In this document: piece after piece, positions 10,212 through 39,635 of the stretch
How positions within the stretch are numbered: position 1 is the stretch's first letter
Layout: each line of letters starts with the position of its first letter
Assembly: GCA_017609985.1 (NCBI GenBank)
Contig: JAFCCW010000002.1
Coordinates: 590 to 64,589, forward strand
Direction: 5' to 3'
DNA length: 64,000 nucleotides
Source: Candidatus Iainarchaeum sp.
Lineage (GTDB): Archaea; Iainarchaeota; Iainarchaeia; Iainarchaeales; JAFCCW01
Made by a program: the position numbers and the translations under genes
The notes under the pieces: generated by a model
The model's input: only the letters and a program-made list of their open reading frames with translations
The model's database searches: none
What the model was told of the DNA's origin: nothing

Positions 10212-10232
10212 TCGTGCTCCGAAAAAGGCAAA

Positions 10233-10717: not shown

Positions 10718-10802
10718 TGTTAAATTAGGTTTTTATCATTTAAATTCCTTTCTCAATGCAAAGAATTAATAAATCAAAAAAACCAGTTAATAGCGTGATT
10801 TA

Positions 10803-11240: not shown

Positions 11241-11267
11241 TTTTACTTATTTAATAGGGTGATTTTT

Positions 11268-11483
11268 ATGGGTTTGATGGATTCAATTTTTGGAATCAAG
11301 TCAGAGAAGGCAAAATCAAAAATTGTCTTGGCTGCAAGGCGAATAGAGGGAAAAATGCACTTGTTTGAAATTTCTCGAGACCGAGCTGGACAAGGCAATG
11401 CAGTAATCAAGCACAGAATCAAAAGAACAGGAGAACAATATTATAAAGAAATTTCCAGTAAAAAAATTAACAGCAAAAACTAG
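11268..11483 (+). CDS. hypothetical small protein
   Basis: The track ORF starts at GTG 11259. I prefer ATG 11268 (MGLMDSIFG...) because GGGTGA lies 5 nt upstream. Confidence 0.45.
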   Translation: MGLMDSIFGIKSEKAKSKIVLAARRIEGKMHLFEISRDRAGQGNAVIKHRIKRTGEQYYKEISSKKINSKN

Positions 11484-12142: not shown

Positions 12143-12171
12143 CTTTGACTAATATAATATTTTCCAAATAT

Positions 12172-22793: not shown

Positions 22794-23306
22794 ATGGTGA
22801 ACAAGGAAATAGTTGAGCAGACAATAAAGAAAATGAAGGACTCAGGAATAGATGACTCTGCAATAAAGCAAACTCTTCGAGACGTGGGTTTAAGCGAACA
22901 AGAAATAGAAGCTTATCTTCCTTCACAGCCAACTGAATCTGAATCTAAGCCAGCTCCGAACCCGGAACATGAGGCAATTGCTGAAAAAACAGCTGAAAAA
23001 GTAAATCAATATATCTCTCAGCAAACAGAGGAACATGCTTTAAGAGAGCAAACTTCTAAATCTGATTTGGATAATCACTCAAACAAGATTGACGAGCTTC
23101 ATGAAAAAGTTCAGGGAGTAAGCGAAAAAATTGAATCGATTTCCACAGAGTCTTCTGCAAAAACACTCGAAGCAATAAGAGAATTAAACAAGCGGGTTTC
23201 TTCTCTCGAATCACAGATTTCAGAAATAAAAAGCATTTCAAATGCAACAAAATCTTTAATGGAGAAAGTTCTTGAAACAGACAGAAAAGTTCTTTCAAAG
23301 CTTTAA
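22794..23306 (+). CDS. hypothetical coiled-coil protein
   Basis: 170-aa ORF, S/E/K-rich and helical. Convergent with the end of the giant-gene locus. Confidence 0.55.
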   Translation: MVNKEIVEQTIKKMKDSGIDDSAIKQTLRDVGLSEQEIEAYLPSQPTESESKPAPNPEHEAIAEKTAEKVNQYISQQTEEHALREQTSKSDLDNHSNKIDELHEKVQGVSEKIESISTESSAKTLEAIRELNKRVSSLESQISEIKSISNATKSLMEKVLETDRKVLSKL

Positions 23307-23370: not shown

Positions 23371-23712
23371 CTACTTAAAAAACTTGAAGAATCCTTCAAT
23401 AACATTCTTGCTTCCCTGTCCGATTCTTCCCCAAATTCCCTTGGAGGAATAAACATAGCCTTGGTCAAACCCGCCTCTGGCTTCATCGCCTGCTTTCTTT
23501 CCAATTTCTCTGGCCCAGTCATCTGCAACAGATGGGTCAACTTCTGGCTCTGCTTTCTCTAGTTCTTCCATGCTTCCTTCCAAAAGCTTTGCTCTTGCAG
23601 TGAATACAATAGTCATTATTCCAAGAACGAAAAGAATTAATGCAGCGTCAGTTGCCCCAATCACAAATAGGAACAATGACAAACCCCAGAGATAAAAAAG
23701 AGCTGAAGCCAT
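23371..23712 (-). CDS. small membrane protein (2 TM plus a soluble charged tail); last gene of the giant-gene locus
   Basis: The ATG at 23712 overlaps the upstream TGA by 1 nt (TGATG). The sequence begins MASALFYLWGLSLFLFVIGATDAALILFVLGIMTIVF. Confidence 0.6.
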   Translation of the reverse strand: MASALFYLWGLSLFLFVIGATDAALILFVLGIMTIVFTARAKLLEGSMEELEKAEPEVDPSVADDWAREIGKKAGDEARGGFDQGYVYSSKGIWGRIGQGSKNVIEGFFKFFK

Positions 23713-24017
23713 CACATTCCCCCAAGCAAGCCTCCGTAAGGATCTGGGGGATATAATTCTGGTTGCTGTGGTTTTTGTCCAGCGCCGAGGAAAAGCGCAA
23801 GAATTATTAAGCCAAACATAATCACTGGCCAGTAGTCTGCAACTGAGATTTTTCCAATATAGAGTGCAATCAAAGCAACAATCATTATAATCAGTGTTCC
23901 AAAGTCTCTGCTTGTAAGAATCATTACTGCAACAATTCCAAACACAATCCAGTTTTGGTCAAACTGGAAAGCAATCATCATCATTAAAATTCCAGTTATG
24001 AGAGAAAATGTATCCAT
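23712..24017 (-). CDS. small polytopic membrane protein (101 aa, ~4 TM, P/G-rich C-terminus)
   Basis: Hydrophobic ORF in the same operon-like string. No family recognised. Confidence 0.6.
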   Translation of the reverse strand: MDTFSLITGILMMMIAFQFDQNWIVFGIVAVMILTSRDFGTLIIMIVALIALYIGKISVADYWPVIMFGLIILALFLGAGQKPQQPELYPPDPYGGLLGGM

Positions 24018-24030
24018 TAAATCACCAAAT

Positions 24031-24267
24031 CTAGTCCTTGTAAATGCTTATCTTGTCAATAAGCTCTTTTCCAAAAGTTGCAAACAAAAATAATACTGCT
24101 GGAATCCAAACAAGCTCTGGATACTGAAAAAATGTTAAGTAAACAACAATCACTGAAAACAGGATTGCGAGCTTTGCCGAACCAAGCTTTGATTTTGCCC
24201 AGGAATAAATCCACACAAGATAGACAAGAGACAAAACAGTCATTATGTTTTCAATCATGTTAGACAT
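24031..24267 (-). CDS. small polytopic membrane protein (~78 aa, 3 TM)
   Basis: The track ORF starts at TTG 24279. I prefer ATG 24267 (MSNMIENIMTVLSLVYLVWIY). Confidence 0.55.
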   Translation of the reverse strand: MSNMIENIMTVLSLVYLVWIYSWAKSKLGSAKLAILFSVIVVYLTFFQYPELVWIPAVLFLFATFGKELIDKISIYKD

Positions 24268-24308
24268 GTTATCAACCAATAATCTATTCTTCTAACTGGT
24301 TTAAATGC

Positions 24309-24626
24309 TTAGTGCCCTCCAGCAAGCCTGAATGTTCCCCAAATAATTACTGAAAGGAATTGCATTCCTAAGAGTATGTAAAGAATGTACATTGGAGCAA
24401 ACAGGTAAACCCATTTGAACACAAGGAAATAAATAAGCACTGCGGAAACAATTATTGAAACTACTCCGTTTCCAATATAACTTCTCACAGTCATAAAAAT
24501 CGTAAAAATAAGAATAAGCCTGAACACGATGTTTGCTGGGGGAAAAACAAGCATTATTACTGGCACAGCAATGGCTATCAGCAAGAACACTCCGAGAATA
24601 ATCAGAATAAATCCTCTATCATTCAT
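24309..24626 (-). CDS. small polytopic membrane protein (105 aa, 4 TM)
   Basis: The ATG lies 5 nt after the upstream stop. The protein is almost entirely hydrophobic. Confidence 0.6.
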   Translation of the reverse strand: MNDRGFILIILGVFLLIAIAVPVIMLVFPPANIVFRLILIFTIFMTVRSYIGNGVVSIIVSAVLIYFLVFKWVYLFAPMYILYILLGMQFLSVIIWGTFRLAGGH

Positions 24627-24631
24627 TTTTC

Positions 24632-25048
24632 TCAGCCCCCTGGCCCCCTTCTCATTATCTGCGATTGCTTCATTCTTCTTGCAACATCCGCACCACTGTT
24701 AACTGGAGACTTCCATCTTGGAGAGTCGCCCCCACCTGGTTTTCCATGGATAATCTCTTCCGGTCCTTGTCCCCCCTGCGGCTGTCCGCTTGGCATAACA
24801 AAGAAGAAATCTATTAACACTCCGCTGACTCCAAACAATAGCAATAGGTATAATACAAACAAGCCCCCAAAAAATGCCCAAAATTCAAACAATATAAACC
24901 AGCCGACTCCAGCCATTGCAACAACTGCCATTGGACTTGTGCCCAGGTGATTTTTCATAAAAGAAGCAATTGTCAGAAAAGCAAAAATCTTTATTACTAT
25001 ATTTGCGTCTGCGAGGAGTTCTCCAATAAACAAAAGTGAGTAAATCAT
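24632..25048 (-). CDS. small polytopic membrane protein (~138 aa, 3-4 TM, G/P-rich basic tail)
   Basis: The ATG at 25048 lies 4 nt after the TGA of the 2329-aa gene; the track's TTG at 25060 would overlap that gene. The tail reads PSGQPQGGQGPEEIIHGKPGGGDSPRW. Confidence 0.6.
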   Translation of the reverse strand: MIYSLLFIGELLADANIVIKIFAFLTIASFMKNHLGTSPMAVVAMAGVGWFILFEFWAFFGGLFVLYLLLLFGVSGVLIDFFFVMPSGQPQGGQGPEEIIHGKPGGGDSPRWKSPVNSGADVARRMKQSQIMRRGPGG

Positions 25049-25052: not shown

Positions 25053-28000
25053 TCACCCAATACAGGTTTCTCCGCCTAAAAGCCCTTCTTCAAAAGCTTC
25101 AATGCTTGTGTTGTTTCCCTCTGCACTATACAGTGTTTCTGGATTCCACCAGAAAACAGTTCTTGTTCCAGAATTTGTAAGGCAAACCCGCTCTTCTTTC
25201 ACAAGACTGAAAACTCGGCTAATAGAATCAATGCTTGAACTCTTGCTGTTGTGAGCCATTCCACTAATTCCCTCTAATTCAATTGCTGGTGCTGCTGGCT
25301 CATCAGCTGTAATGAAAAGAGTTGAGTCACTCAAAGATTTAAGAGAATAATTTTTTCCAACAGGAGTAAAGAAAACTGTTTTAAGGAACACATTTCCTTC
25401 TTTCTCAGCATTGGCCCAGTCAAGAGCATAAGCTGTTTGCCAGTTTTGAAGCTGGTCTTCTGCTGTTGCTGCTCTGTCAGGAGTAAGGCTAAACACAGCA
25501 GAAGATGGCATTCCGCTGAAATCAAAGCAAAGCCCTGCCCCACTCCAAAAATTCATCATAGTTCCCTTGCTTTGTGGAACTCCTGCTTCAACAAGCTGAT
25601 AGAATGCAGAGAACGCTTGTTCTGTTTTTTCTCCTGAAATTTTTAACAAAACTGGAGTTGCCTTGTTTGGAGAAAACTTGATTCTTGGCGTGTCTGTTGA
25701 TGCACCGCCAGTTACTTCAAGAAGTTTTCCTCTTGAAGAAACCACTGAATTCATTGAAGAAATATCCTCTTCCAGGCTTGTTTCAACACTGAAAACAGGA
25801 TTGCTTCCTTGAATTTCTTCTGTTTCCACTAAGTCGTTAAGTGAAGCAATCTTGATTGGTTTTCCATCACCCTCATAATTTATTCCATAACCCTGTCTTC
25901 CGTTTCCTGATTCAACACCAACTCTTCCGTTGAATGGCAGATAATAAAACGGAGAATTGAATTCTGGGTTCCCAATCTTGTGCAATGCAATTTTTACATC
26001 AGCGTTTGGACTCCCTCCACTAACAAGCTGCCAATCTTCTCCAAACTCCCCTTCAATCGAAACCCGGTAAATTCCTGCACCAGGCAATGTTTTTCCCTGC
26101 CCTCCAAGTAATCCAAAACTAAGTCTTCCTTCACTGAAAAACTTGTCTATTGAATTTCCTGAAAAAAAGTCTGGTGTTCCAAGAAGCATATTGTCTTTGT
26201 AATAACTTGCAAAGTCTTGCTGGAAATCCATTGAATAACCATCTTTCATCAAAGCAGCATTAAATTTAAGCAGGCTTTCCAATGCTTCAATGTCTGGTAT
26301 TTCAGAAGTCCATTCAATTATTCCCGTGCTTCTTCTTTCCGCATCCTCTATAAAGTAAGCAATAGCTGGTCTTCCATCAATAAGCTTAGTTGAAAAAGGC
26401 ATCCAGCATTCTTCATCCTCCACAAATGGAGTAAGCACTGGTGTTGTAAACGGACTTGCACTATCAACTCCCTGAGCAGAAGCAATACTTATTCTCATAA
26501 CATAAAAGCTATTAATTTCAGGAATGCTTGGAAGAGAACAGCTTCCTGTTTTAGAGCTTCCATTAGCAATTGCTGAAACAACTGTACTGCATTTTTTCTG
26601 AGCAGAACTTAAATTAATGCCGTCAGGAGAACTGATTATTTCTGCTGTAACAGTCGCTGTTGCTGTTTCGCCTGACTTATTTTCAACTTCAAAGTTTACC
26701 TGTAGGTCTTGTCCAATAAAACCATGGCTTGCATTTTTCAGCCCGACTTTTCCTGGAGAAACATTTCTCTCCAAGTCATCTTCTGCATCTTCAAATTCCT
26801 GCCTTTGCGCGCTTCTAGGGCTTGCAGGACATTCAAGAGCAGTTGAATTTCTCTCAAGCCATTCATGCAGTGCATTAAGTCTGTAAGAAAGCATTATGCT
26901 AAACTGTGTCGCATCACAGTAAACAAAGTCTCCGTCTTCTGTTTCTTCACAAGAGCTTACTCCAATTCCGTTTCCGCCCCAGTTCCAATTATAGTTTACT
27001 TTTGGAAGAGCATTGCTTCCAGTAATTCCTACTGCTGTGTCTGAAACACATTTCTCTGCTCTCAGATAGCTGGGTGGGAGCTGAAACTCGTTTTGCTTTG
27101 TCACAAATTTCATGTGAATCTTTTCAGTATGCTGTTTTACTTCCTTGTCAGGCACGTTCATTTGCCCAAAATCGTTGTTGAGCAGATAACCGCCTGGAAT
27201 AACAGTAGGATCATCGTGGAAGTGTCTGTTTGCAGTAATTGTCATCACAGAATAGGAAGCTGCTTCCTCTTCAATTCCAGTATTCATAAAACTGATTATT
27301 GCTGTCTGATAATCCCATTTTCCAAAAACTGATGGCTGATAGTCTGTGCCGTTGTCCCAACCCCATTTAGCATTAATCTTGTTAATTCCTGTTTGAATGC
27401 TTTCAGCATCTTCAATCAAGTTAATTACTGTTGCCTGCATTGGCTCTGAATGGCGCTGGTCACAGGGGTCGTCTCCAAAACCAAACAAGCTAAGTAATAC
27501 CATGATTGCGCCGGCTATAATTCCAACAGGTCCCGCGATAAGAGCAGTCATTGTCTGATAGCCAAGTCCTGCCGCCATAATTTTTGAAGTAAAGTCTTCT
27601 CCGCTTCTGTTTGACATAGTCTGCCACTGGCAAACACTTGCATTAACCTGAACTTCTTCTGAAAGACCAGTGTTCTTTAGCATAACCTGTGATTCGCTTC
27701 CCTCTCCAATTAATTCAATCGGGCCATATCTGTCAAGCGAGAAAAACTTGCTTGCCACTGGCTCTACAATAACATCAACTGTTCCAATTTTTGCCCATCC
27801 TGTTCCTGGAGCTCTTGCGTGGACCGTGATTCCATATATTCCCGGAATGTGAAGTCTTTGCACTAGCACTTCTCTGCTTTGCTGTGTTAAAGTGAAATCT
27901 TTTGGAAGCAGGTTTACTCCTCCCTCGGTTCCGCCTGCACAATCTTTGTCGTCCTTGCAAAGTTTTATTGTTACTGGAATTGGACCACAGTCGCTTGTGT

Positions 28001-31000
28001 CAATTGAAAACTGGGTTGTTGTTCCTGCTGAAGAAATTGTTGGCATTTTCAGAGACTGGGTTGAGTCTTCTTCTGCAAGATAAACTGCTGCGTCTTCAAA
28101 GCTTACACAATTCTGCAATGAAACAACCTGAATATTTCCGTGAATTGCTTCCGGAGTGCTTGCTACTTCTCCAGTTCCTGCTCCAGACTTTAAGATTCCC
28201 GCAATCTTTACATCAAACTCTAAATTGGAAGTCTGTGCAGAAGAATGGGGTGTGACAGTCAATATTCCTTCAAGAGTTTCTCCGTAAGGAACTGATTCAA
28301 TCATTTGAGAATAAACAGGGCCAAGAGTTTGCTCTGCAGTAATTCCATCGTGAAGTGTGAGAGTTGCAGAAGCTGTTCTATCGCTTCCATCAGCCCACTC
28401 AATTTTTGCCTTTAATCCATCCAAGTCAATTTCTGTTCCATCAACAATGCAATGATTTGTAATCTGGAATCTGATTTGCTTGCTTCCGCTTAACAGGGAA
28501 TCATTCCAATTTGGCACACTGTTTCCAACAATTTCAAGGCATTCCTCGTCAGGCAAGCCACCAAGTGAAACATGCAGATTTATCGGAATTACAACATCCC
28601 AGGTTAGTCCAAGAGAATCACTTGCAAGTGACAGAACAGCAGTCCCATTCGAGGAAACATTCTCTGAGAGAAGCCTTGCCATATCCTCGTTAAGGATTGT
28701 TTTTAGCACAATTGTTTCTGTTTCACCTGCAGAAAGTGAAAGTCCCTCAAAAGAGTTAGTCCAGCCATTCATTCTTGGCAAGTCAAGAAACTCAGTCATT
28801 TCTCCACCAAAAGAAATTCCCTCAATTCTTAACCCAATGTCTGACTTGCTTGTAATTGAAATCTCATTGTCTTCCTCTGTTCTTGTAAGAGTGTTAAGGG
28901 AAGAAAAAATTTGCTCTGGATTAATTTCTATAAGATTCATATCAACAGCAATAGCAAGAGTTCCTCTGCCGTAATCTTTTTTCTTTGCTTCAAAGATAAA
29001 CACGCTTCCCGGAGACGAGCTTGGAAGTGAAAAGACAGCTTCTCCAAATTCGTCAGTTTCTGTCTCTGCTAACCGCTGTGAATTCCTGTAAGCATCAATT
29101 TTTGTTACTGAAACACTTGCTCCATCAACATATTCTTCGTCTTCGTTCTGCACAATAATTTTCAAATCAGTTTCAGTAAAAGCAGAAATACTTTTCGGCT
29201 CTGCTGAAATCTGGAGCAGGTTTTGGGAAGAAACCTCAAACCCTATTGCTTTTTTGAAAACCTCTGTGCTGTCAGCAATAAGGCTTAGCACAAGGTCTGA
29301 ATTCTTTAATTCAACTGGTTCAAAAAGAACTACTCCAGTGAAGCTCTTTTTCTTTTCAAAGCCTCCAACTTCAATATCCTCTACTTCAAATTCATTAATT
29401 TGGATTTCACTTTCTAATCCATCAGCATCAACAAGTTTCATCTTCTCCATTCTTAGAACATCGCCCTGCTCTCCTCCAATTCCCTTGTTTGAAATCCTGA
29501 ACTCAAAATCATTGTATCTTGTGTCTGAATTATTGAAAACAGAAAAAGAAATATTGTAGTCAGAGTTAACCATCAAAGAATAGGGTGAAGAAAGATATAG
29601 TTCTTCATCAAAACCATAAACACGTTCTCCAGAATAACAAAAATTGTTTTCATTGCATTCCTGTGCACTTCCCTCGCTTAATTCAAGATTAATTGTTTCA
29701 GCATAAAGTTCTCCCTTCTCGGGGGAAGAACGAAGCATTCCAATTACTGGGTCTTCCGGCATTCTGTAAAATAATTCTTCTTTTTCGCCCCATGCTCTGT
29801 AATGCACTGGGAAAAGAGAGTTTCTTGCAACATCCTGTTTTACTTTTACATCTATTTCAATATCAAAAGTTTTTTCTTCAATGTCATCTCCTTCAATCAC
29901 GATGTTAACCCATTTTCCAGCATCTCTCTCATCAACAAGATTTTTTACATCAATGCTCCAGCTGTTCGGTGCATTAAAGCTGACTCCCTTTACTACTGAA
30001 GATGACCCTGCTCTTACTCCTCGAATATACAAGAGATCGTCAAAATAAGCTGTCTCGTTTCCTGTTCTAAAATGCATTCCTGCACTCTCAACTCCTGAAT
30101 TTTTTGGAATTTTTAAGAAAAACCTGAGAGTTGTTTCCTTGTCAGCTTGAAGATGCTCTGTCTCAACTCCATTTTGGAAAGCTCCAATAAATTCTATTAC
30201 TGGATAGTCTCCCTCAATGATTGGTTCAAGAATTGCCTCAACTTTTAGTGTGTCACCACCCAAAAGCAAGAGTTTTGGAGACACATAGTCCATAAACTGG
30301 CTGTTGCTTACCACAAGATAGACATCTCTATCTGCCTTTAATTCAAAAGACTCAATTCCTTCCGGAGTCATCGGAATTTCTCTTAACAGTTCTCCGTCTG
30401 TTGCAATAATGCTGAGCAGACAGTCAGGTACATAAATCCCTTGCTGGTTCAGGGCGTGAACTTCAACAAGCGTGTTTCCAATCACAAGCAATATCTCAAA
30501 ACTGTTTTCCTCAATCTCCAAATCAACCTGCCTTGCGCTCTCCCTGTTTTCTCCGCTGACTCTTCCCTTTATTGCTTTTCCATAATAGCTTCCAGCTCCA
30601 ACATTCTCAAAGCTTGCGATTCCCTCTGAATCAGTTACAACATAGTCTCCTGAAGAAAAATGAACAAGAGAATCATTCTCTGCATTCATTAAGTAAACAC
30701 GAGCATTCTCTACGCTCAACCCTTCTTCGTCAAACACTGCAAACTGCACAGTAGTTGAAGTGCTTGGAGTTGCTTCCACTAGAAGTATCTGGATTTCTTC
30801 CTCTAAACTGAGAACCTCAATTTCCTGAGTAATATAACCATCCATTGAAACAGAAACAAACAGGTTCTGGTCCTCTTGAACAGCAGTCAAAGCAATAACT
30901 GCTTTTCCTTCTCCGTCAGTAAAAGTCTGTCCTGCTTCCTGTCCTCCGGAAAGTAGCACAATTCTTGAATTTGCAAGACCCTCTCCACTTTCTGAATCAA

Positions 31001-32042
31001 TAACTGTAAACGAAAGCTGTTGCTCGGCTTCTGAAACCACAGCAGTAATTCTTTTGTCCTTGCCTGCAGAAACAGTTATTTCTGTTCGCCCATCAGAACT
31101 GTATTCTGCTCCCTCGTCTGAAATAATCACGTCATAAATTCCTGGTTCAAGATTTCTGAAAACAGCCTGGGAACTATAACCTGAACTTTCCGAAATAACC
31201 AGACCTCCAAATCCATTCCATAACTCTACGTTAAAGGTTACTCCATATACTGCTTCCCCACTTTCGTCAACAATGTCAACAGTCAAAGAAGTTTTTTCTT
31301 CGTCTTCTTTTGGAGAAAGATTGATTATTTTGGACGAAGAATCAATAACAAAGCTCTCTGTTTTGAATCCCTTTGCACTAACTTCTGCTGAAAGAATCTC
31401 ACAGTTTATTGGGGGGAGAACAGTTAGTTCTCCGTTCATGGTAGAGTTAGTGTTTGGTGATGGGAAAACAACTGGATTGTCAATGCAGGTAAAATCAGCA
31501 TTAATTTCTTTTCCAGTCAGCGTGTTTCCTCCTGGAGACCGGAAATAAAGAGTTCTTGTTTTTGGAGTTACAATCAATTTTTTAAGGGAAATAACAATTG
31601 TTTCATTGCCCAGGATATCATATCCCTTTGAAAAAGCACTGTACTTCTCGCCCTCAACGATTAGTTCAGGAAGAGACAATTCAAGAAAGCTTTCAGGCAG
31701 AATTCCTTCAATTATTGTGCCTCCTTGTGCATCAGTTAACACTGTTCCCTCTACTCCATTAAGGGAATAGCTTATTTCAACATCTCTTAACTTTACTCCT
31801 GTTTCTGTTTCCAAAGAAATATTTGCAGAAAAACCAGCCTGCGTTGGAGCTGGAAGTGACAAGAAGATAATTATCAATAACAATAACAAAACAGCTGAAA
31901 ATAGGATAAAAGATGGAACAAATCTGTCAATCGGGTCAATGACCTTGTAAACAGGAATTGCTTCATTAATCTTGTCCAGTAACCCGTAGTACTTGTCTTC
32001 AAGAGACAGGTAAAGGTCTTTAATGTTTTCCAAAAAATTCAT
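25053..32042 (-). CDS. giant membrane-anchored surface protein, paralog GP2329
   Basis: Uninterrupted 2329-codon ORF in AT-rich DNA. N-terminus: LYLSLEDKYYGLLDKINEAIPVYKVIDPIDRFVPSFILF plus a TM helix. Many beta-sandwich repeats follow (e.g. FAVFDEEGLSVENARVYLMNAEND...TDSEGIASFENVGAGSYYGKA). The central hydrophobic segment is AGLGYQTMTALIAGPVGIIAGAIMVLLSLFGF. The C-terminal module has VYCDATQFSIML and SPFYYLPFNGRVGVESGNGRQGYGINY. Confidence 0.9.
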   Translation of the reverse strand: MNFLENIKDLYLSLEDKYYGLLDKINEAIPVYKVIDPIDRFVPSFILFSAVLLLLLIIIFLSLPAPTQAGFSANISLETETGVKLRDVEISYSLNGVEGTVLTDAQGGTIIEGILPESFLELSLPELIVEGEKYSAFSKGYDILGNETIVISLKKLIVTPKTRTLYFRSPGGNTLTGKEINADFTCIDNPVVFPSPNTNSTMNGELTVLPPINCEILSAEVSAKGFKTESFVIDSSSKIINLSPKEDEEKTSLTVDIVDESGEAVYGVTFNVELWNGFGGLVISESSGYSSQAVFRNLEPGIYDVIISDEGAEYSSDGRTEITVSAGKDKRITAVVSEAEQQLSFTVIDSESGEGLANSRIVLLSGGQEAGQTFTDGEGKAVIALTAVQEDQNLFVSVSMDGYITQEIEVLSLEEEIQILLVEATPSTSTTVQFAVFDEEGLSVENARVYLMNAENDSLVHFSSGDYVVTDSEGIASFENVGAGSYYGKAIKGRVSGENRESARQVDLEIEENSFEILLVIGNTLVEVHALNQQGIYVPDCLLSIIATDGELLREIPMTPEGIESFELKADRDVYLVVSNSQFMDYVSPKLLLLGGDTLKVEAILEPIIEGDYPVIEFIGAFQNGVETEHLQADKETTLRFFLKIPKNSGVESAGMHFRTGNETAYFDDLLYIRGVRAGSSSVVKGVSFNAPNSWSIDVKNLVDERDAGKWVNIVIEGDDIEEKTFDIEIDVKVKQDVARNSLFPVHYRAWGEKEELFYRMPEDPVIGMLRSSPEKGELYAETINLELSEGSAQECNENNFCYSGERVYGFDEELYLSSPYSLMVNSDYNISFSVFNNSDTRYNDFEFRISNKGIGGEQGDVLRMEKMKLVDADGLESEIQINEFEVEDIEVGGFEKKKSFTGVVLFEPVELKNSDLVLSLIADSTEVFKKAIGFEVSSQNLLQISAEPKSISAFTETDLKIIVQNEDEEYVDGASVSVTKIDAYRNSQRLAETETDEFGEAVFSLPSSSPGSVFIFEAKKKDYGRGTLAIAVDMNLIEINPEQIFSSLNTLTRTEEDNEISITSKSDIGLRIEGISFGGEMTEFLDLPRMNGWTNSFEGLSLSAGETETIVLKTILNEDMARLLSENVSSNGTAVLSLASDSLGLTWDVVIPINLHVSLGGLPDEECLEIVGNSVPNWNDSLLSGSKQIRFQITNHCIVDGTEIDLDGLKAKIEWADGSDRTASATLTLHDGITAEQTLGPVYSQMIESVPYGETLEGILTVTPHSSAQTSNLEFDVKIAGILKSGAGTGEVASTPEAIHGNIQVVSLQNCVSFEDAAVYLAEEDSTQSLKMPTISSAGTTTQFSIDTSDCGPIPVTIKLCKDDKDCAGGTEGGVNLLPKDFTLTQQSREVLVQRLHIPGIYGITVHARAPGTGWAKIGTVDVIVEPVASKFFSLDRYGPIELIGEGSESQVMLKNTGLSEEVQVNASVCQWQTMSNRSGEDFTSKIMAAGLGYQTMTALIAGPVGIIAGAIMVLLSLFGFGDDPCDQRHSEPMQATVINLIEDAESIQTGINKINAKWGWDNGTDYQPSVFGKWDYQTAIISFMNTGIEEEAASYSVMTITANRHFHDDPTVIPGGYLLNNDFGQMNVPDKEVKQHTEKIHMKFVTKQNEFQLPPSYLRAEKCVSDTAVGITGSNALPKVNYNWNWGGNGIGVSSCEETEDGDFVYCDATQFSIMLSYRLNALHEWLERNSTALECPASPRSAQRQEFEDAEDDLERNVSPGKVGLKNASHGFIGQDLQVNFEVENKSGETATATVTAEIISSPDGINLSSAQKKCSTVVSAIANGSSKTGSCSLPSIPEINSFYVMRISIASAQGVDSASPFTTPVLTPFVEDEECWMPFSTKLIDGRPAIAYFIEDAERRSTGIIEWTSEIPDIEALESLLKFNAALMKDGYSMDFQQDFASYYKDNMLLGTPDFFSGNSIDKFFSEGRLSFGLLGGQGKTLPGAGIYRVSIEGEFGEDWQLVSGGSPNADVKIALHKIGNPEFNSPFYYLPFNGRVGVESGNGRQGYGINYEGDGKPIKIASLNDLVETEEIQGSNPVFSVETSLEEDISSMNSVVSSRGKLLEVTGGASTDTPRIKFSPNKATPVLLKISGEKTEQAFSAFYQLVEAGVPQSKGTMMNFWSGAGLCFDFSGMPSSAVFSLTPDRAATAEDQLQNWQTAYALDWANAEKEGNVFLKTVFFTPVGKNYSLKSLSDSTLFITADEPAAPAIELEGISGMAHNSKSSSIDSISRVFSLVKEERVCLTNSGTRTVFWWNPETLYSAEGNNTSIEAFEEGLLGGETCIG

Positions 32043-32087: not shown

Positions 32088-35000
32088 CTATTTTCCAGTG
32101 ATGCAGTTGTTTAGAGCATTGTCTACATTGTCTTGCATTGATTCAAGAACTGGCTTTGGATTCCAAAAGAACATTGAGTGCATGCTGTTGTCATAACCGC
32201 TTACACAAACTTTTCCTTGTTTGACAAGTTCTAGAATGCGCTCGACATTTATTTCGTCTCCACCAGCATAATTGAAGGCTTGTCCTCTGACACCGTTCAA
32301 TAGGATGTTTTCTCCAACTGTTTCATCAGTAATCAGTGTCATTGAATCGCTTCCAGCAATTCTCTTCATTGAAGAGCTTTTTCCCTGTGGAGTAAACACA
32401 ACGCTTTCAACATAAATATTTCCGCTTCTCACTGGATTGCACCATTCAAGACCGAATGAAACAAGTGATGTTCCGCCAATCAAAGCACATTCTGCATCAA
32501 TTGCGTGCATGTCGTATCTGTCATCAAATGCATCAACTATTGGCTGGTCAAAGAAGTCTCTGCACTGTACTCCAACACCAGACCAAGGTAACAAGCCTCT
32601 TGAAGAGCCAGTCTGTGGTTCTCCTCCAACATCAATTGAATAAAATCCAAAAGCATCCTCTGCTTTTTCATGTTGAACATTCATCATCACTGGAGTTGCA
32701 TAGCTTGGACTCAGAGTCAACCTTGTTTCTGCAGCGCTTGTGTCAGTGATTAATCTTCTCACATCAAGCACAATTCCTCTCTTTTCATTGTTGAGCTTTG
32801 TGAAACTGTCTTCAAATCCTCCAAGCAGTTTTCCTGCAGCTGGATTGCTTCCAATAATTTCGCTTGTAATAACTCTCTGCATTGGATCACTGTTAATCTC
32901 AATTGGCTCTTGTGCTTCCTGCACATAATTAATTCCATATCTCTGCCTTCCATTATCTGAATCAATTCCAATTCTTCCATTGAATGGCAGATAATAAAAT
33001 GGAGAGTCTGGTTTTGGAGCCTTTTTTCTGAACAGGTTAACTGTTATCTTAGCCTGCATTTCCCCTCCGTTGAAGAGCTTCCAGTCGCTTACTCCCTCGT
33101 CAAATTCTATTTCAATTTTTGCCTCATAAACTCCTGCTTCTGCATAAGCTCCCTGGTTCACAAGAGGATAACTAAAAGAAAATCTGTTCTCTGAATCAAA
33201 GTATTTTCCAATTCCTTCTTCACCATCAGTATACCATGTTGGGGTGCCAAAGAATGAATTATTTATGCTGAACTCGTGGAAATCATGCCTTAAATCATCA
33301 GAATAACCATCTCTGACAAGCAATGCACTAAAACCATTTGCATAGGATAAGACCTGCTCTCTTGTTCCTGAAGGGAATGATACTCCTTCGTGCTCGCTTG
33401 CTTCTACAAAGTCCTGCAATCTGCTTAGCTTAAATGGCTCGCATTGAGTAATTCCGCTTGAACTAAAGTTTAGGTTGAGTGAAATTGAGTTATTCTCTGC
33501 CTCGTTGTCCTCACAATGCTCTTCGCTTGTGCAAGTTGACAAATTTGGAGTTGCTCTAGCGTTCAACACAAAATTTTCTGAGCCAGTTCCCTGTCTTTCC
33601 AGAACACATTCAACAGTCTTTGACTGTTTTGAAACTCTTTCAGCTGTTCCAGTGCAAGAATCAACAATGTTTCCGCTTGAGTTCTTGAGCTCCATTATGT
33701 ATCCAACATCAACCGAGCCCTGAATATTTGTTCCAATCGAAAGCACTGCCTTGACATTCTGTCCGTCCTTGCTCCAGGACATTCTAGTAATTCCAATATC
33801 CAGTTCGCTTTCGTGCAAGTCTTGGCTTTCCGAACTAAATTGTGCTCCAAGGCTTGGGCAGTAAAGTGAAGAACCATACTGATCAAGGAAATCCTTTACT
33901 TTCTTGAGTTTCTTCATTAAAGAAATACTGAACTGTGTTGCATCGCAATAAACATGGTCTTTGTTAAGCTCGTCGCATGCATCCTCTGGAATCTCTGACC
34001 AGTCCCATGCAAACACAATTTTTGGAGCAGCATCCTCTCCCGTGTTTCCAACAAGCTCTCCAAGCTGGCAGTTAATTCTTTCAACTGCTGGGCAAGGGAA
34101 CGTGTCCGGACCACATTCCTGTGCATGATATGAATTAAACTGGAGATTGAATTTTTCCTTGAAATCCTCTGTTTTGTCCTCGTCAATTGCAAGCTCTTTT
34201 GGAAGAGTTTTTCCATAACTTCTCTTGTAATCAAGTCTCTCTCCCGCTACTTTGAAAATTCTGAACAAAGGCTTTGAAGGATTGTCTTGAGTAATTCCTG
34301 TTTCGTTAATGAATGCAATTTCTCGGCTTCTCTCTTTCAGGCTCATATCTCCGCTTGCTTCCCCCCCAATTTGAATTCCAACATAGTTTTCCTTTGCTGC
34401 GCTAACAGAATACTGTTCGAGGTCTCGAACAGAGATATCCTCGTCTTCAACACTCTCCAAACCAGACTCTTTCAAAACAATCATTTCCTCGATTGAAAGA
34501 TCAGCTGCTTCAACAGGCCTTTCCATTGCAATAACTCCTTGTTTGCTGTAAGCATCAGTTGCATGATAGAGAACACCCCACAGTCCCCAAGTCCAAGGGT
34601 CTGGCTCGCCAAGGATAGTTGAACCCAATCCCATGAAAGCTCCGCCAAGTCCGCCGAGCAATCCTCCGCCGCTGCCTCCTCCGAGAATGCTGCCAGAGTC
34701 TCCTCCTCCGAAGAAGTTGAGATACGCTGTTGTTGGAATTTCGCCAAGAGCTTTTGCCTGAAGTGTGTTAACACATTTTTTTGTTGTATAATCACATTTT
34801 CCTGATTCACAATTATCATGATTGGCACAGGGTTCTCCAATTTTGGATTTTTCTTTTTCCAAAGGATTAGGCAATCCAACACCCGAGCTTGGTGCAACTT
34901 CTGCTCCTGCAACCGGTGTTCCTTCCATTCCAAGAAGTATGTTTTGAACTTCGTTTTCAAGATTGTTTATAAGTGTAAGTTGAGTTCCTTGAAGTTGTGC

Positions 35001-38000
35001 ATAGTCTGCTTTGTTTCTGTTCCAGGACTTGCTTTCTTGGTCAATAAAATATCTTAGATTTCTTGTTCCGCCAACAGTAACTGTAACAATATTGTCTGAT
35101 TGTCCAAGTGAATCAACTGAGAGCGTGGGGCTGCTATTGCCCATACTTGCCCTTGCTTGTGGAATCGCCTGATTAAATGCCTTGCTGAGATTTTCTGCAG
35201 TTACATTTTTTACATTTCCAAAACTAGCCTTTGTCACATTCGCTTGTCCTTGTCCATCATCTTTGTCGCCTAACCAGCCTAACAATGCCCAGATTAGCCC
35301 TCTTTGGAATCCGTCTTTTAGTGCGTCTGACCAGCTTCTTGTGTCTATTGTGACTCCTGTTACTCCCTTTGAATAGCATCTGTTGTGTAACTCTGCTACA
35401 TCATAACCGTTTTCTCCGTTGTCTTGTGGGAACACATCGTACTCATACTTGCTTAGTTCAATGCAGGAATCGCTTGGAGTAACAACTCTTACCATATCAA
35501 TTAACTGCATTTTCTTCTGGTCCTGTCCCTTGGCTCTGACATATATTGGGTATTGGCCTGGCATGTCTTCTGCTGTAACAGTTATTTTTTCGCTTCCGCT
35601 TCCTTCAAGTGAAAATTCTGTTTCGCTAAGTGTCAAATCTGATTCTATTTCAAAGCTTGTTGTTCCACCGCACTCGTGTGTTTCAATCTCAAACTCTCCT
35701 GTCTCGCCTTGTTTGATTTCAATTATATCATCTGATACAGAGATGCATTCTCTCAGGTTGACTGCTGAAATTTCAAACTCTAGTTCTGTTGAAAGTTTCT
35801 GCATTTCTCCTCCTGTTGGATTGCTTGCTTGGAATATTATCTTTCCGTTTGCTAGCCCGTTAACCTGTGGGTCTGGAGTGAAAGTTAACACTGAGCCCTT
35901 GCTGTCTTCTGCTTCAAACACTGGTTCAAATACACGATAGTATCCTGGTCTTAATTCTTTTGTTAGCTCACCCATCTTTAATCCAATTCTTCCAAGATGA
36001 TTGCTTTCCCATTCAATCTTTGCTTCAAGATTGTGGAGGGGGATTGGCTGGCCTCCAATAGTGCAGTTGTTTTGCACATCGAACGAGAGCTGAACAGGGT
36101 TTCCTTCAGTCATTGCTCTCCAGCTTGATTTTGTAACTTCAAGGCAGGCTGGGTCATCAACACTTCCTCCAATGTTCACGGAAACTTTAACTGGCACTTC
36201 GTATAACCATGTGTTGTCTCTTGTTCCAACCTCAATTAATAGCTTTCCTTCAACTGTCTTTCCTTCAAGTTGTCTTGAAGCAAATTCGCTTGTGTAAATT
36301 CTTGCAAGAAGTTCTCTTTTTTCTTCTTCTTCAATGTTTCCCCCAGTGTATGTATTAATCCAGTCATTTGCCTGAGACAAGTCAATTAGCTCATCAAAGT
36401 CGCCTTGGAATTCAAGGCTGTAAATTGTCAAATCATATGGTACAAGGTTTTCAATTGAGAACAGTTTTTCATCAACTTTTTTGGTTGTGACATTAACTGA
36501 GAAACCAATTGTATCTGGCTCTATTGAAATTATTTCGTCTGAAACAACAAGTTCGTATCTAAGCACTTTGTAGCCTGCTTTTTCAACTACTATGTAGAGT
36601 TTTTCTCCAGGTTGTTGTGCTGGCACGCTTAACACTGCTTTGCCCATTGAATTGCTTCTCTTTTCTGCAATTCTGTCTCCAAACCTGTCTTCAATGGATA
36701 CAAGCGCGTCTGCTATTTCTATTCCCTTTCCTTTTTCCTTGACTGTGACAGTTATCTCTTTTTCAATTCCTGCAACAAGTTTTTCTGGTTTTACTTCTAT
36801 TTCAAACTCTTTGCCTGCAACTGTGTTAATCAAAATTGTCTTGGAGTAAACAACCTGCAAATCACTCTTTGCCTGAATTGTGAGTGCCGAGCTTGCTTCT
36901 TCCTGTGGGATAAACTTGAATCTTCCGGAGAAAGAAGTTTTTGGTTCAAAATCCCCTATTTCAATCCAGCTACTTTCATATCCTGCCACGTTTCCGGAAA
37001 CAGGGTCTGCTTCTGCTTTTGTCACTGAATAGTTTCCTAAAAGTATTTTTTCTTCTGGATTTTCAAGCTTCAACAGTGCGTTTGGGTAACCATAAACTGG
37101 CAAATCACTGTTGTTAAGCACTGTGAATCTTAACTCATATCTTCTGAAAATTTCTGCTTCATATGAATCTGTAATTGAAGAAACAAGGTCTTCATCCAAG
37201 TCAATAATGCTTAGAGCATAGCAGAACTTGTCATCGCACACTTCTTTTATTCCAATTTCTAAATATTTTATGTTAGTGTTTGCATAGAGTGAATGTTTTG
37301 CTGAAGTCATCTCTGCTTCTCCAAGCTCGTTGTCAACTGGTGCTCGCTCCCAGATGTTTCCGTTTTTTATAGCCCAGCTTCTGTAATGTAACTCGAGCTT
37401 GTCGTTGATTGAAGCTGTTTTTCTGACTGTGAATTCTGCTTCAACCTGTGTTACTCCGCTTGTAATTGAGTCTCCTGTTAACTCTACATTAATCCATTTA
37501 GCTGAACCCTCGGTCACGTGCTCTATGTCTTGAGAATAATTATTTGGAGGGTTGAACGAGGTGCTTTTTACAATAATCTTGCTTCCTGGCACATTAACTT
37601 TTGTCAGGAAGAATTGTTCTCGCTCCATTGCATTCTTGCTTCCTGCTCTTACATGGAATCCAAGTCCAGTGTAATTGTCTCCAGAGCCTGTTTCAGGAAC
37701 CTGCAATTCAAACTTTGCAATATATTCTTCGTCTGGAGCAACAACTGTTACATTGTTTCCTTGCTTGTCAACTATTCCCACGAGTTTTAGCTCTGGTTTT
37801 CCAGAAATAATTCTTGGAATCATTTTTACATAAATTTCCTGAGTAGTGTTTGGAAGCACATCATATTCTTTTGAAGTAAAAGTTGCATAGCCATCTTTTC
37901 TTACAACAAAGTAAATACTCTTGTCTGCTTTTGAAGTGTATTCTTTGACACTGTTGCCGTCAGTAGTTGTTGTTCCAATTCTTTCCCCGCTGTCTGCATT

Positions 38001-39635
38001 GTAGAAAGTTACTGTTGTTACTCCAATTGGTTCTTTTGCACTATCTCTTGCGATAATCTTTATTGTTCCATCAGGAATAATCAGTGTTACTGTCAAAAGC
38101 TGCGGGTCATCTGACTTAGCAATGAACTTGATTGGGTCGCTCCAGTTAGAGTAGCTTCCCTTGAAAGCGAATGCCTTGTAGTCTCCGTTTTCAACTCCTC
38201 TGAATCTTGCTATTCCGTTGAGGTCAGTTGTTTTTGGAATCATTCCAAGAATAACAAATTCGTCTTCGTCGTAGAGATTAACTGTTGCATTCTTGACTGG
38301 CTCTCCGTCCTCGTCAATTACCAGCACGTTAAGGTCTGCTCCGCATAATCCTGGAGCAAATCTTGTCAGATAAATTGTGTAAATTGTTCCCCCTATGTCA
38401 AGCCCTGTTCTTGTGTTCATGCAGTAGTCTTCGTGGTCAGCACTAATCCAGAACGGCCCCTCTTCTGTCAGTGAAAATTCAACATATCCGTTTGAGTCAG
38501 TGAAAGCTGGTGCTTCTACTGCTTCGTCGTCTTTTCTCAGAATAATCATTGCATTGTCTATTTCGTCACTGCTAGTGCTGTCTCTTACTTTTATTTTTAC
38601 TTTTCCAAGAATTGTTTCGCTGACAACAACTTCCACAAGCTCTTCTGTTCCTGCTTCCAGAATAATTGTTCCTGATTCTGCAGAAGAATAACTATTGGAA
38701 GAGCCAACATTAATCGTGTAGTATCCTGCGTCAACGTTACTGAAGAGAACTATTCCTGTTGAAGTATCCTTTGTTCTGTAGGTTGCTCCAGAGTCTGCGA
38801 GGGAGAGAGTAACGTAAACATGCTCGTCAAGGAATTCCTGTCTGTCTGCATCAGTAAAAATCTTTACTCTGATGCTTCCTGTTTCTGCATCTGGATCCTC
38901 GCTTTTAAGATAGAGGGTAATCCTGTTTGAACCAGAGTTAAGTCTTCCGCCTTCTCTTAATTCATATCTGTCTGTCTGTGACCAAAGCTGTGTAATTTTG
39001 AGTCCCTGGCATTCGCTTGAAACCCTGACACTGAATCCGCCGGAAACAGGATTACTTACTGTTGGTGCAATAGTATTTGAAGAGTAAGTGCAGGCAAGCA
39101 CTATATTAACTGGGTCATTTACTGGGCTTCCGTACTCGTCAACAAAGTTAACTGTAACATCGTCATATTCGACTGGTTCAAGAGATTCTTCCAGAACTGC
39201 CGTGAATTCATAGTCTGCGCGGTCAATAATAAAACTGTCTGAAAAGTCTTCGTAACCATCTTTTTCAATGCTTATGCTTACGCTGTCTCCAACTTTTGCA
39301 TCTATGCCGTCAGTTATTGCATCAAGTCCTTTTGCAAGAACTGTCTTTTCTTCGCCTTCGCCAATAACATAGCTTACGCGTGTATTTGGCAAAGCATCTT
39401 TGTTCTCGTCTTCAACCGCAACCGTGAAAACAGCTGCTTGTTGAAAAATAAATGGAAGCACGAGGAAAAATATTCCAAGAATTATTAAAATAAAAAGCAG
39501 GATAAACAGGATAAAAGATGGAAAAACACGGTCTATTGGGTCAATTACTTTGTAAATCGGGATATATTGGTCAATCTTGTCAAGAAACTGATAATATCTG
39601 TCTTCAAGACTGTGATAAATGTCCTCAAGGCTCAT
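32088..39635 (-). CDS. giant membrane-anchored surface protein, paralog GP2515
   Basis: 2515-codon ORF. N-terminus: MSLEDIYHSLEDRYYQFLDKIDQYIPIYKVIDPIDRVFPSFILF plus a TM helix. Carboxypeptidase-regulatory-like repeats follow (LNVLVIDEDGEPVKNATVNLYDEDE...NGDYKAFAFKGSY). The central Gly-rich segment is GGGDSGSILGGGSGGGLLGGLGGAFMGLG. The C-terminal module has VYCDATQFSISL and SPFYYLPFNGRIGIDSDNGRQRYGINY. Confidence 0.9.
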   Translation of the reverse strand: MSLEDIYHSLEDRYYQFLDKIDQYIPIYKVIDPIDRVFPSFILFILLFILIILGIFFLVLPFIFQQAAVFTVAVEDENKDALPNTRVSYVIGEGEEKTVLAKGLDAITDGIDAKVGDSVSISIEKDGYEDFSDSFIIDRADYEFTAVLEESLEPVEYDDVTVNFVDEYGSPVNDPVNIVLACTYSSNTIAPTVSNPVSGGFSVRVSSECQGLKITQLWSQTDRYELREGGRLNSGSNRITLYLKSEDPDAETGSIRVKIFTDADRQEFLDEHVYVTLSLADSGATYRTKDTSTGIVLFSNVDAGYYTINVGSSNSYSSAESGTIILEAGTEELVEVVVSETILGKVKIKVRDSTSSDEIDNAMIILRKDDEAVEAPAFTDSNGYVEFSLTEEGPFWISADHEDYCMNTRTGLDIGGTIYTIYLTRFAPGLCGADLNVLVIDEDGEPVKNATVNLYDEDEFVILGMIPKTTDLNGIARFRGVENGDYKAFAFKGSYSNWSDPIKFIAKSDDPQLLTVTLIIPDGTIKIIARDSAKEPIGVTTVTFYNADSGERIGTTTTDGNSVKEYTSKADKSIYFVVRKDGYATFTSKEYDVLPNTTQEIYVKMIPRIISGKPELKLVGIVDKQGNNVTVVAPDEEYIAKFELQVPETGSGDNYTGLGFHVRAGSKNAMEREQFFLTKVNVPGSKIIVKSTSFNPPNNYSQDIEHVTEGSAKWINVELTGDSITSGVTQVEAEFTVRKTASINDKLELHYRSWAIKNGNIWERAPVDNELGEAEMTSAKHSLYANTNIKYLEIGIKEVCDDKFCYALSIIDLDEDLVSSITDSYEAEIFRRYELRFTVLNNSDLPVYGYPNALLKLENPEEKILLGNYSVTKAEADPVSGNVAGYESSWIEIGDFEPKTSFSGRFKFIPQEEASSALTIQAKSDLQVVYSKTILINTVAGKEFEIEVKPEKLVAGIEKEITVTVKEKGKGIEIADALVSIEDRFGDRIAEKRSNSMGKAVLSVPAQQPGEKLYIVVEKAGYKVLRYELVVSDEIISIEPDTIGFSVNVTTKKVDEKLFSIENLVPYDLTIYSLEFQGDFDELIDLSQANDWINTYTGGNIEEEEKRELLARIYTSEFASRQLEGKTVEGKLLIEVGTRDNTWLYEVPVKVSVNIGGSVDDPACLEVTKSSWRAMTEGNPVQLSFDVQNNCTIGGQPIPLHNLEAKIEWESNHLGRIGLKMGELTKELRPGYYRVFEPVFEAEDSKGSVLTFTPDPQVNGLANGKIIFQASNPTGGEMQKLSTELEFEISAVNLRECISVSDDIIEIKQGETGEFEIETHECGGTTSFEIESDLTLSETEFSLEGSGSEKITVTAEDMPGQYPIYVRAKGQDQKKMQLIDMVRVVTPSDSCIELSKYEYDVFPQDNGENGYDVAELHNRCYSKGVTGVTIDTRSWSDALKDGFQRGLIWALLGWLGDKDDGQGQANVTKASFGNVKNVTAENLSKAFNQAIPQARASMGNSSPTLSVDSLGQSDNIVTVTVGGTRNLRYFIDQESKSWNRNKADYAQLQGTQLTLINNLENEVQNILLGMEGTPVAGAEVAPSSGVGLPNPLEKEKSKIGEPCANHDNCESGKCDYTTKKCVNTLQAKALGEIPTTAYLNFFGGGDSGSILGGGSGGGLLGGLGGAFMGLGSTILGEPDPWTWGLWGVLYHATDAYSKQGVIAMERPVEAADLSIEEMIVLKESGLESVEDEDISVRDLEQYSVSAAKENYVGIQIGGEASGDMSLKERSREIAFINETGITQDNPSKPLFRIFKVAGERLDYKRSYGKTLPKELAIDEDKTEDFKEKFNLQFNSYHAQECGPDTFPCPAVERINCQLGELVGNTGEDAAPKIVFAWDWSEIPEDACDELNKDHVYCDATQFSISLMKKLKKVKDFLDQYGSSLYCPSLGAQFSSESQDLHESELDIGITRMSWSKDGQNVKAVLSIGTNIQGSVDVGYIMELKNSSGNIVDSCTGTAERVSKQSKTVECVLERQGTGSENFVLNARATPNLSTCTSEEHCEDNEAENNSISLNLNFSSSGITQCEPFKLSRLQDFVEASEHEGVSFPSGTREQVLSYANGFSALLVRDGYSDDLRHDFHEFSINNSFFGTPTWYTDGEEGIGKYFDSENRFSFSYPLVNQGAYAEAGVYEAKIEIEFDEGVSDWKLFNGGEMQAKITVNLFRKKAPKPDSPFYYLPFNGRIGIDSDNGRQRYGINYVQEAQEPIEINSDPMQRVITSEIIGSNPAAGKLLGGFEDSFTKLNNEKRGIVLDVRRLITDTSAAETRLTLSPSYATPVMMNVQHEKAEDAFGFYSIDVGGEPQTGSSRGLLPWSGVGVQCRDFFDQPIVDAFDDRYDMHAIDAECALIGGTSLVSFGLEWCNPVRSGNIYVESVVFTPQGKSSSMKRIAGSDSMTLITDETVGENILLNGVRGQAFNYAGGDEINVERILELVKQGKVCVSGYDNSMHSMFFWNPKPVLESMQDNVDNALNNCITGK

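Follow-up and report, generated by a model that had tools for sequence, protein, structure and literature searches.

In the tiny genomes of DPANN archaea, several percent of the sequence codes for giant surface proteins, which are thought to serve the cell envelope or contact with a host. We know of no mechanism described for the insertion, export and holding of such giants in a single membrane. The nearest functional analogy is the accessory Sec (aSec) system of Gram-positive bacteria, in which SecA2 and SecY2, together with the small proteins Asp4 and Asp5, export giant serine-rich adhesins. Sets of several tiny polytopic proteins, some of them paralogous and encoded in tight operons, are found in the FliP-FliQ-FliR gate of flagellar and type III secretion systems, in TatA/TatB and in Tim17/22/23. 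Here we analyze a stretch of 64,000 nucleotides (nt) from Candidatus Iainarchaeum sp. (assembly GCA_017609985.1, contig JAFCCW010000002.1, positions 590 to 64,589 of the forward strand), which we call the window. In it, five small membrane-protein genes, labelled A to E, follow GP2329, a gene for a giant surface protein of 2329 amino acids (aa). A-E belong to new protein families that are conserved in the Iainarchaeota, and most likely, though tentatively, they encode one complex that acts on the giants.

The A-E locus resembles aSec in that very small membrane proteins are encoded beside the gene for a multi-thousand-residue surface protein with an unusually long conserved N-terminal region. 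The analogy is functional only, however: the A-E cluster has no SecY2 or SecA2 paralogue, its products show no similarity to SecE or SecG in sequence or structure, the host is an archaeon, and the giants here apparently stay anchored by an N-terminal helix. With the FliPQR, TatA/TatB and Tim17/22/23 sets, A-E share the tiny size, the many membrane helices, the partial paralogy and the tight gene packing, and as in those sets, a pseudo-symmetric heteromer would be expected. Yet A-E have no detectable homology to any of them, nor do they come with an export ATPase, a TatC or another core component; A, B and C instead amount to a triplicated three-helix module with its own basic-x-x-LGxG loop. 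The type IV secretion-like Ced and Ted systems, which combine a CedA1/VirB2-type protein with an ATPase of the VirB4/HerA clade, are compared below, together with a HerA-clade neighbor of the cluster.

A-E are five minus-strand open reading frames (ORFs) 3' of GP2329, and ORF analysis and public gene calls agree with the sizes and junctions that an initial annotation of the window had given for them. A (24632..25048, 138 aa) is predicted to have three helices, a disordered tail rich in glycine, proline and glutamine, and a basic C-terminal helix. B (24309..24626, 105 aa) has four helices, and C (24031..24267, 78 aa) has three. D (23712..24017, 101 aa) has about four helices and a tail rich in glycine, proline and tyrosine, and E (23371..23712, 113 aa) consists of an N-terminal two-helix hairpin and a charged tail of ~70 aa with an amphipathic FFKFFK-type helix at its end. 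Hydrophobic helices thus dominate all five proteins, and both the composition first described, mostly transmembrane helix with two to four helices each, and the glycine- and proline-rich tails (in A and D) were seen again. Family-averaged hydropathy gives three helices for A, four for B, three for C, about four for D and two for E, or ~16 in all, so that the 17-20 originally proposed was slightly high. The stop codon of GP2329 lies within a GGGTGA Shine-Dalgarno-like string, and its TGA is separated from the ATG of A by 4 nt; the A-B gap is 5 nt, the B-C gap 41 nt (29 nt counted from an alternative TTG at 24279) and the C-D gap 13 nt, and D and E overlap by 1 nt in the string TGATG, the ATG of E lying on the D stop. 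GGTGA or GGGGG strings occur 5' of B, D and E. Exactly the same six genes, A-E and F151, a further small membrane-protein gene described below, are called without names and with the same starts in the NCBI/JGI collections, and independent gene calls from another genome give a series of 2454, 138, 106, 84, 109 and 127 aa. No RNA genes overlapping the A-E region were found.

Loci were searched by Blast and with hidden Markov models (HMMs) of the window proteins against six-frame ORFs, and a pattern scan with one genome per species, using a pattern built from an 11-sequence alignment, gave 56 loci. All named genomes among these are Candidatus Iainarchaeum or Diapherotrites, and the remainder are archaeal metagenome-assembled genomes. 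A, B, C and D are present in 52-56 loci and the order A-B-C-D-E is kept throughout: B lies directly 3' of A in 55 related loci, C is kept in 54, and D is kept in 52, 3' of C. The fast-diverging E was recovered by Blast in seven loci and by iterated HMM search in 53, each time directly 3' of D; a word-indexed protein search with E as query had E itself as its sole match. B is the best conserved of the five. For A, an exhaustive HMMER search at E<=1e-3 returned 81 cluster representatives, 49 of which reached E<=1e-10. Every one is 76-195 aa long and aligns across the helical core, with G73 and D80 invariant and D14, K20 and F83 near-invariant.

Median pairwise ratios of nonsynonymous to synonymous substitution (dN/dS) were 0.16 for A, 0.16 for B, 0.15 for C, 0.17 for D and 0.22 for E, and the closest pairs gave 0.05-0.15; values of 0.05-0.2 were seen at a dS of about 0.4-2.5. 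Based upon this conservation across loci, the dN/dS values and the independent gene calls, A-E are genuine genes whose products are under purifying selection, and they are specific to the Iainarchaeota, a DPANN lineage. The initial annotation had allowed that the ORFs might not be conserved as coding sequence, which the medians of 0.15-0.22 contradict. Likewise, we give practically no credence to the idea that A-E are spurious ORFs, chance products of AT-rich intergenic DNA: it has nothing to recommend it beyond small size and hydrophobic bias, and it is refuted by presence in more than 50 genomes, low dN/dS, kept lengths and family-specific invariant residues.

Comparison with known proteins led nowhere, in keeping with the earlier statement that no family could be recognized. 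Pfam and NCBIfam scans of A-E returned nothing, and a Pfam scan of each single A, B and E family member gave no consistent match. Alignments of A, B, C, D and E (48-57 sequences), used as profiles against all PDB sequences, produced nothing significant, and a Foldseek search of the A model against the PDB gave nothing better than E 2.6. In the literature on Iainarchaeota or on DPANN giant genes, nothing was found on these proteins. Two sets of matches were considered and set aside. A relation of D to the chaperone NACHO/TMEM35A (9h9e; profile E 0.012, domain E 0.07) was rejected because the alignment is purely hydrophobic, and matches of a few scattered members to TgpA_N, Wzy_C, NMN_transporter and FA_desaturase were put down to composition.

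Specific machineries were also considered in turn. For the small Sec subunits (SecE/Sec61gamma, SecG/Sec61beta, Asp4/Asp5), the SecG profile reached a non-significant E of 3.1 with A and 0.72 with E, and no SecY- or SecA-type core partner domain occurs in the scanned ORFs of the cluster and its flanks. For Tat, A-E have two to four helices each and no match to PF02416, with no TatC-like ORF nearby. The YidC/Oxa1/DUF106 group (YidC, EMC3, Get1) gave no Foldseek or Pfam match, and the A model is short-looped, with no coiled coil. The small multidrug resistance (SMR) family profile PF00893 was matched by 0/56 B and 0/57 A members even at E<=1, and there was no EmrE-like Foldseek match. For the Mrp/Mnh subunits, C alone matched MNHE, scoring 11.9 bits (E 0.2) where the cutoff is 27, and the cluster contains no large antiporter subunit of the MnhA/D type. 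A predicted archaeal secretion system comprising a MoxR AAA+ ATPase, a vWA protein and arCOG01314/DUF4350 (Makarova et al., 2015; PMC5898192) was excluded: it is a different gene set, and none of its domains occurs in the scanned ORFs. By every comparison made, the A-E families are new, and the possibility that they would turn out to be components of an already described transporter or respiratory complex found no support with the tools used.

Within the cluster, A, B and C are paralogues of one three-helix module. In hhalign comparisons, A matched B with a probability of 97.9% (E 5.9e-13, 73 columns, A7-79 on B23-95) and C with 93.7% (E 1.9e-7, 65 columns), whereas reversed-sequence controls between different families stayed at <=8%. 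HMM searches agreed, with the A HMM matching B at 6.8e-8 and C at 3.1e-6, and the B HMM matching A at 1.6e-6 and C at 6.8e-6. The common core of ~70 residues runs helix, [KR]-x-x-L-G-x-G loop, helix, helix, the loop reading KNHLGTS in A, VRSYIGNG in B and AKSKLGSA in C. C is the minimal version, B adds one N-terminal helix, and A, the founding member, adds the disordered tail, which varies in length, and the basic C-terminal helix. Three copies of the module, in the order A, B, C, stand behind the giant array in each genome. D, compared with the other families, gave hhalign probabilities of <=40% over at most 24 columns, and at the level of profiles, D and E are unrelated to A/B/C and to each other. 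An AlphaFold2 model of A, built from a 57-sequence alignment, has a mean predicted local distance difference test score (pLDDT) of 83.9, with 10-residue blocks at >=91 over residues 1-80, and places helices at 2-35, 39-55, 57-84 and 119-133. Conserved charged residues (D14, K20, D80) lie at helix ends. The positive-inside rule would place the LGxG loop in the cytoplasm, together with the tails of A and E.

The gaps between the genes divide A-E into two compact units. Across genomes the median gap is 5 nt for A>B, 13 nt for C>D and 4 nt for D>E, but 81 nt for B>C, and it is between B and C that insertions of 233-4554 nt occur in five loci; in one locus, L022 in our numbering, an inversion has its breakpoint there. 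In one genome (L024), B and C are separated by the gene for a 1405-aa secreted protein (9008-13225), which puts 4.5 kb between the two units. A TATA-like box, scored at -22..-55 upstream of the start, precedes A in 33/56 loci and C in 35/55; for B, D and E the figures are 4/56, 14/53 and 8/54, respectively. A aaaGAATTTATT-type box is common to many C upstream regions; in the window, a TTTAAA box (24300..24305, minus strand), which matches the consensus ~35 nt upstream of the C ATG, is a candidate C-D-E promoter. Shine-Dalgarno-like strings precede B in 45/56 loci, D in 38/53, C in 35/55 and E in 33/54. Because the A-B, C-D and D-E gaps are tight, the B-C gap is wide and TATA-like boxes stand before A and C, A-E form two units, A-B and C-D-E, and not one coupled string. 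The best explanation is that C-D-E, which C opens, would be expressed from its own candidate promoter, and A-B behind the last giant gene. The initial annotation had taken all five genes to be translationally coupled and to be co-produced in stoichiometric amounts. The first claim does not survive the B-C median and the promoter-like boxes, and stoichiometric co-production with the giants is not implied either, since there are two units with boxes before A and C. Inside each unit, the tight packing with Shine-Dalgarno-like sites is typical of subunits that are made together.

A-E close a co-directional array of 37 kb in which all genes are on the minus strand: GP3374 (50331..60455), P599 (48472..50271), GP2663 (40317..48308), F151 (39745..40200), GP2515 (32088..39635) and GP2329 (25053..32042), and then A-E. 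The giants are paralogous to one another; they have an N-terminal anchor and carry Ig-like and CarboxypepD_reg domains. GP3374, the most upstream, is similar to the others over its N-terminal ~1000 aa, and GP2329, directly upstream of A, is preceded by GP2515 in a conserved order of GP2515-like and then GP2329-like gene. P599 encodes an N-terminally anchored protein of 599 aa with no Pfam match, and Blast found relatives of it upstream of a GP2663-like gene in 10 metagenome loci. Strongly hydrophobic internal segments occur in GP2329 (residues about 1497-1524) and GP3374 (residues about 2167-2186), far from the N-terminal anchor; if membrane-spanning, such a segment would return part of the protein to the cytoplasm.

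The association of this array with A-E is regular. In all 50 informative loci a giant gene, the GP2329 orthologue, lies upstream of A, at a median gap of about 56 nt, and in 12 loci the gap is <=11 nt or the genes overlap. On metagenome contigs that are long enough, the array of P599-like, GP2663-like, F151, GP2515-like and GP2329-like genes, A-E, and the downstream neighbors CC170 and P501 (see below) recurs, and the L022 inversion leaves A-B with the giant. F151, the sixth small protein of the initial annotation, is a polytopic protein of four to five helices. Its family was recovered in 29 loci by HMM iteration, always between GP2663-like and GP2515-like genes and at a median of 60 nt behind the preceding GP2663-like giant gene. 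It is therefore conserved, but the likeness to A-E that had been noted does not extend to homology: hhalign gave probabilities below 2% against A-E, and F151 forms a separate family. With F151 likewise placed behind a giant gene in 29 loci, small polytopic proteins that follow giant genes are a recurring, conserved feature of the array, which strengthens the case for a link between the small membrane proteins and the giants. Insertions are seen in this part of the locus as well. Small cassettes, apparently toxin-antitoxin-like and assigned by eye to PIN, HEPN/MNT, RelE and Fic types, lie between the two giants in L006, L008, L010 and L030 and between the giant and A in L026, L033, L047 and L052, and junctions of the giant array are tolerated insertion sites in several genomes.

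There is also an extended N-terminal motif among the giants. A metagenome scan with this motif gave 75 loci, and the complete motif-bearing ORFs are all large (52/52, 591-2916 aa). In L007, L009, L010, L012, L013, L015, L022, L024, L025, L028, L033, L041 and L054, the A-adjacent giant has no IPVY..DPID part and a shorter segment before the anchor. A second type of locus (L065, L116, L117, L120, L129, L133) encodes a 1475-1754-aa protein with the same N-terminal motif, LEDKWY..IPVYK.IDPID, and conserved secreted proteins of ~555 and 790-870 aa replace A-E 3' of it. Co-occurrence of A-E with the motif had been offered as a check on the first interpretation: a giant upstream of A is constant, and the pairing of the motif with A-E is not strict.

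Taken together, the most likely reading, although one we hold tentatively, is that A-E form one complex that acts on the giant envelope proteins. The five proteins would assemble as a single hetero-oligomeric membrane complex of ~16 helices, with a pseudo-symmetric A/B/C core, each module running from helix 1 through a cytoplasmic basic-x-x-L-G-x-G loop to helices 2 and 3, and with D and E added to it. Such a complex would act on the N-terminally anchored giants, either by offering their membrane anchors a platform for docking or assembly or by assisting, as an accessory factor, in their insertion or export, and the cytoplasmic tails of A and E would be available to soluble partners. F151 may act in a comparable way behind a different giant gene. 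We infer both the single complex and its service to the giants; the base, channel or insertase that the initial annotation suggested may likewise describe its role. If A-E do serve the giants, they are a single-copy shared factor and not a per-gene partner. The stronger version, in which A-E, perhaps with F151, would be a previously undescribed archaeal membrane machine, built on a triplicated three-helix module, whose dedicated task in Iainarchaeota is to insert, export or anchor envelope proteins several thousand residues long, seems to us possible but rather unlikely.

Past E, the order CC170 (divergent), P501, P146, PolB and M24 peptidase is syntenic in most loci, and any link of the first three to A-E is uncertain. 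CC170 (22794..23306, plus strand), which lies by E in about 39/41 loci, encodes a coiled-coil protein for which a Pfam scan gave coiled-coil-type noise only; a conserved N-terminal domain of ~45 aa (T.K.M..SGID...I..TL.DIGL) is followed by a low-complexity linker and the coiled coil. P146 (20719..21159, plus strand), a coiled-coil protein of 146 aa, is unusually well conserved in an N-terminal motif (NSSIL.ISQKMKYLVRNEKILGRNL; D.xALNSSILxISQKMKYLVRNEKILGRNLxVLNKK) and carries a C-terminal ELKYVIDSINPLEF box, and a search for a specific family match found none. P501 (21208..22713, minus strand; 497 aa in the public gene call) resembles the HerA/DUF87 hexameric translocases in fold and, weakly, in profile. 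Its PDB profile matches are the HerA-like YjgR (6.5e-4) and HerA 4d2i (1.6e-3), and PF01935 is matched by 11/41 family members. The AlphaFold model (pLDDT 85.8) matches HerA chains in Foldseek at E 7e-13 to 1e-9 with a probability of 1.0, and the top 50 matches include HerA of HerA-NurA and of anti-phage complexes. Unlike these translocases, P501 does not have the catalytic motifs: Walker A (GK[ST]) and Walker B (hhhhDE) were found in 0/41 family members, and none of the known HerA partners, such as NurA or Sir2, adjoins it in the scanned ORFs of the cluster and flanks. A family of 34 proteins was found at E<1e-99, the few named ones labelled archaeon or Diapherotrites; a genome scan with the single P501 sequence gave no match. 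Because the catalytic motifs of P-loop nucleoside triphosphatases are absent in all 41 members, P501 is a HerA-fold pseudo-enzyme and not a functional HerA, a conserved pseudo-ATPase confined to Iainarchaeota.

The presence of a HerA-clade P-loop protein near A-E recalls Ced/Ted, but the likeness goes no further. Every P501 member has lost Walker A and B, so that an active VirB4/CedB-type ATPase is missing, and the P501 Foldseek matches listed are HerA and not VirB4. The A model has three helices where a VirB2/CedA1-like pilin has two, it has no structural neighbor in the PDB and no Foldseek match to a pilin, and the genes do not form one operon. A Ced or type IV secretion reading was therefore rejected, with P501 catalytically dead and HerA-like and A not pilin-like.

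Several observations weigh against the reading that A-E act on the giants. Apparent toxin-antitoxin-like cassettes of up to 2.4 kb can separate the giant gene from A, and A and C usually have the promoter-like boxes described above. Only about half to two-thirds of A-adjacent giants bear the extended N-terminal motif; because about a third of the genomes do not have the IPVY..DPID part, the motif is not obligatory for this giant orthologue. Many motif-bearing giants lie at other loci, followed by secreted proteins of 550-800 aa and not by A-E, and the 1.19-Mb contig Ga0209514_10000002 carries both a canonical array (L076) and a second locus without A-E (L065). A type-II signal anchor can, moreover, in principle go through the ordinary Sec/signal recognition particle pathway. 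Finally, unrelated neighbors are equally syntenic (P146-PolB in 29/30 loci, PolB-M24 in 20/26), and because gene order is kept between unrelated genes too, synteny alone is weak evidence. In a mirror-tree test of rate covariation, regressed on PolB distances, r was 0.4-0.5 within the group of A, B, P501 and the giant C-terminus but not for D or E, a signal inseparable from residual phylogeny. An alternative is a housekeeping membrane complex, or a small transporter or channel for ions, lipids or glycans, that works independently of the giants and owes its position to a frozen ancestral gene order. The very high background synteny, which includes PolB, the M24 peptidase and coiled-coil genes, the separate boxes before A and C, the insertions tolerated at the giant-A and B-C junctions and the motif-bearing giants with no adjoining A-E all favor it, and the conserved charged residues at helix ends would suit a small transporter just as well. 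However, there is no similarity to a transporter family in Pfam, NCBIfam or the PDB, in 12 loci A begins directly at the giant stop or overlaps it, a second small membrane protein, F151, sits inside the giant array, and the family is limited to the lineage that has this array. We regard a giant-independent function as unlikely on balance, though as a serious contender.

The downstream neighbors suggest another arrangement, in which A-E, or at least C-D-E, would be the membrane part of a machine with CC170, P146 and P501, either a membrane-docked scaffold ring, for example in envelope or division architecture, or a degenerate translocation device of the FtsK/HerA type. Past E, CC170 and P501 are kept in about 39/41 loci each and P146 in about 32/37, the L022 inversion, the single one seen, moves C-D-E-CC170-P501-P146 as a block, HerA folds such as that of P501 normally form hexameric rings, and the conserved cytoplasmic tails of A and E could dock soluble partners. 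Yet with no Walker A or B in any of its 41 members, P501 cannot power translocation; the strands alternate, so that CC170, P501 and P146 are not in an operon with C-D-E; one inversion is anecdotal; and the adjoining PolB is equally syntenic. Such a machine seems improbable to us. An even smaller share of our confidence goes to the idea that A-E are diverged subunits of a known system (Sec accessory, Tat, YidC/Oxa1-type, Mrp small subunits, SMR pairs, or pilin-like proteins of type IV secretion or Ced) beyond the reach of our searches. DPANN proteins evolve fast and small hydrophobic proteins hold little signal, and there are the matches mentioned above, none of them significant, to SecG (E 3.1 and 0.72), to MnhE (E 0.2) and, in a few members, to TgpA_N; but profile searches with 48-57 sequences and a confident structure model returned nothing, and no SecY2/SecA2, TatC, MnhA/D or active VirB4 is encoded nearby.

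Elsewhere in the window, a 106-nt Rfam tRNA match at 7437-7542 (minus strand) probably contains an intron and was missed by ARAGORN, and a tRNA-His called by ARAGORN at 9767-9839 (minus strand) is not in the Rfam gathering search list. P704 (60710-62824, plus strand), which encodes a cysteine-rich protein with a signal peptide, had relatives in none of the loci examined.

To the initial annotation, this analysis adds conservation across the phylum, the paralogy of A, B and C, and an operon structure of two units with F151 as a separate family. What emerges is a set of six small membrane-protein families (the A/B/C paralogues, D, E and F151), encoded at one locus throughout the phylum, that resemble nothing known and always accompany an array of giant genes. 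If the stronger version given above, of a dedicated membrane machine, is true, they would represent a new accessory complex for protein biogenesis or anchoring, with no relative among the Sec, Tat, YidC, type IV secretion and sortase systems. Even if they are unrelated to the giants, A-E remain a conserved, lineage-defining membrane complex with no assigned function. Against the background of DPANN dark matter, the result is not startling, yet it provides a well-defined candidate behind giant archaeal surface proteins: A-E and F151 are concrete, well-delimited targets in the search for the missing giant-protein machinery.

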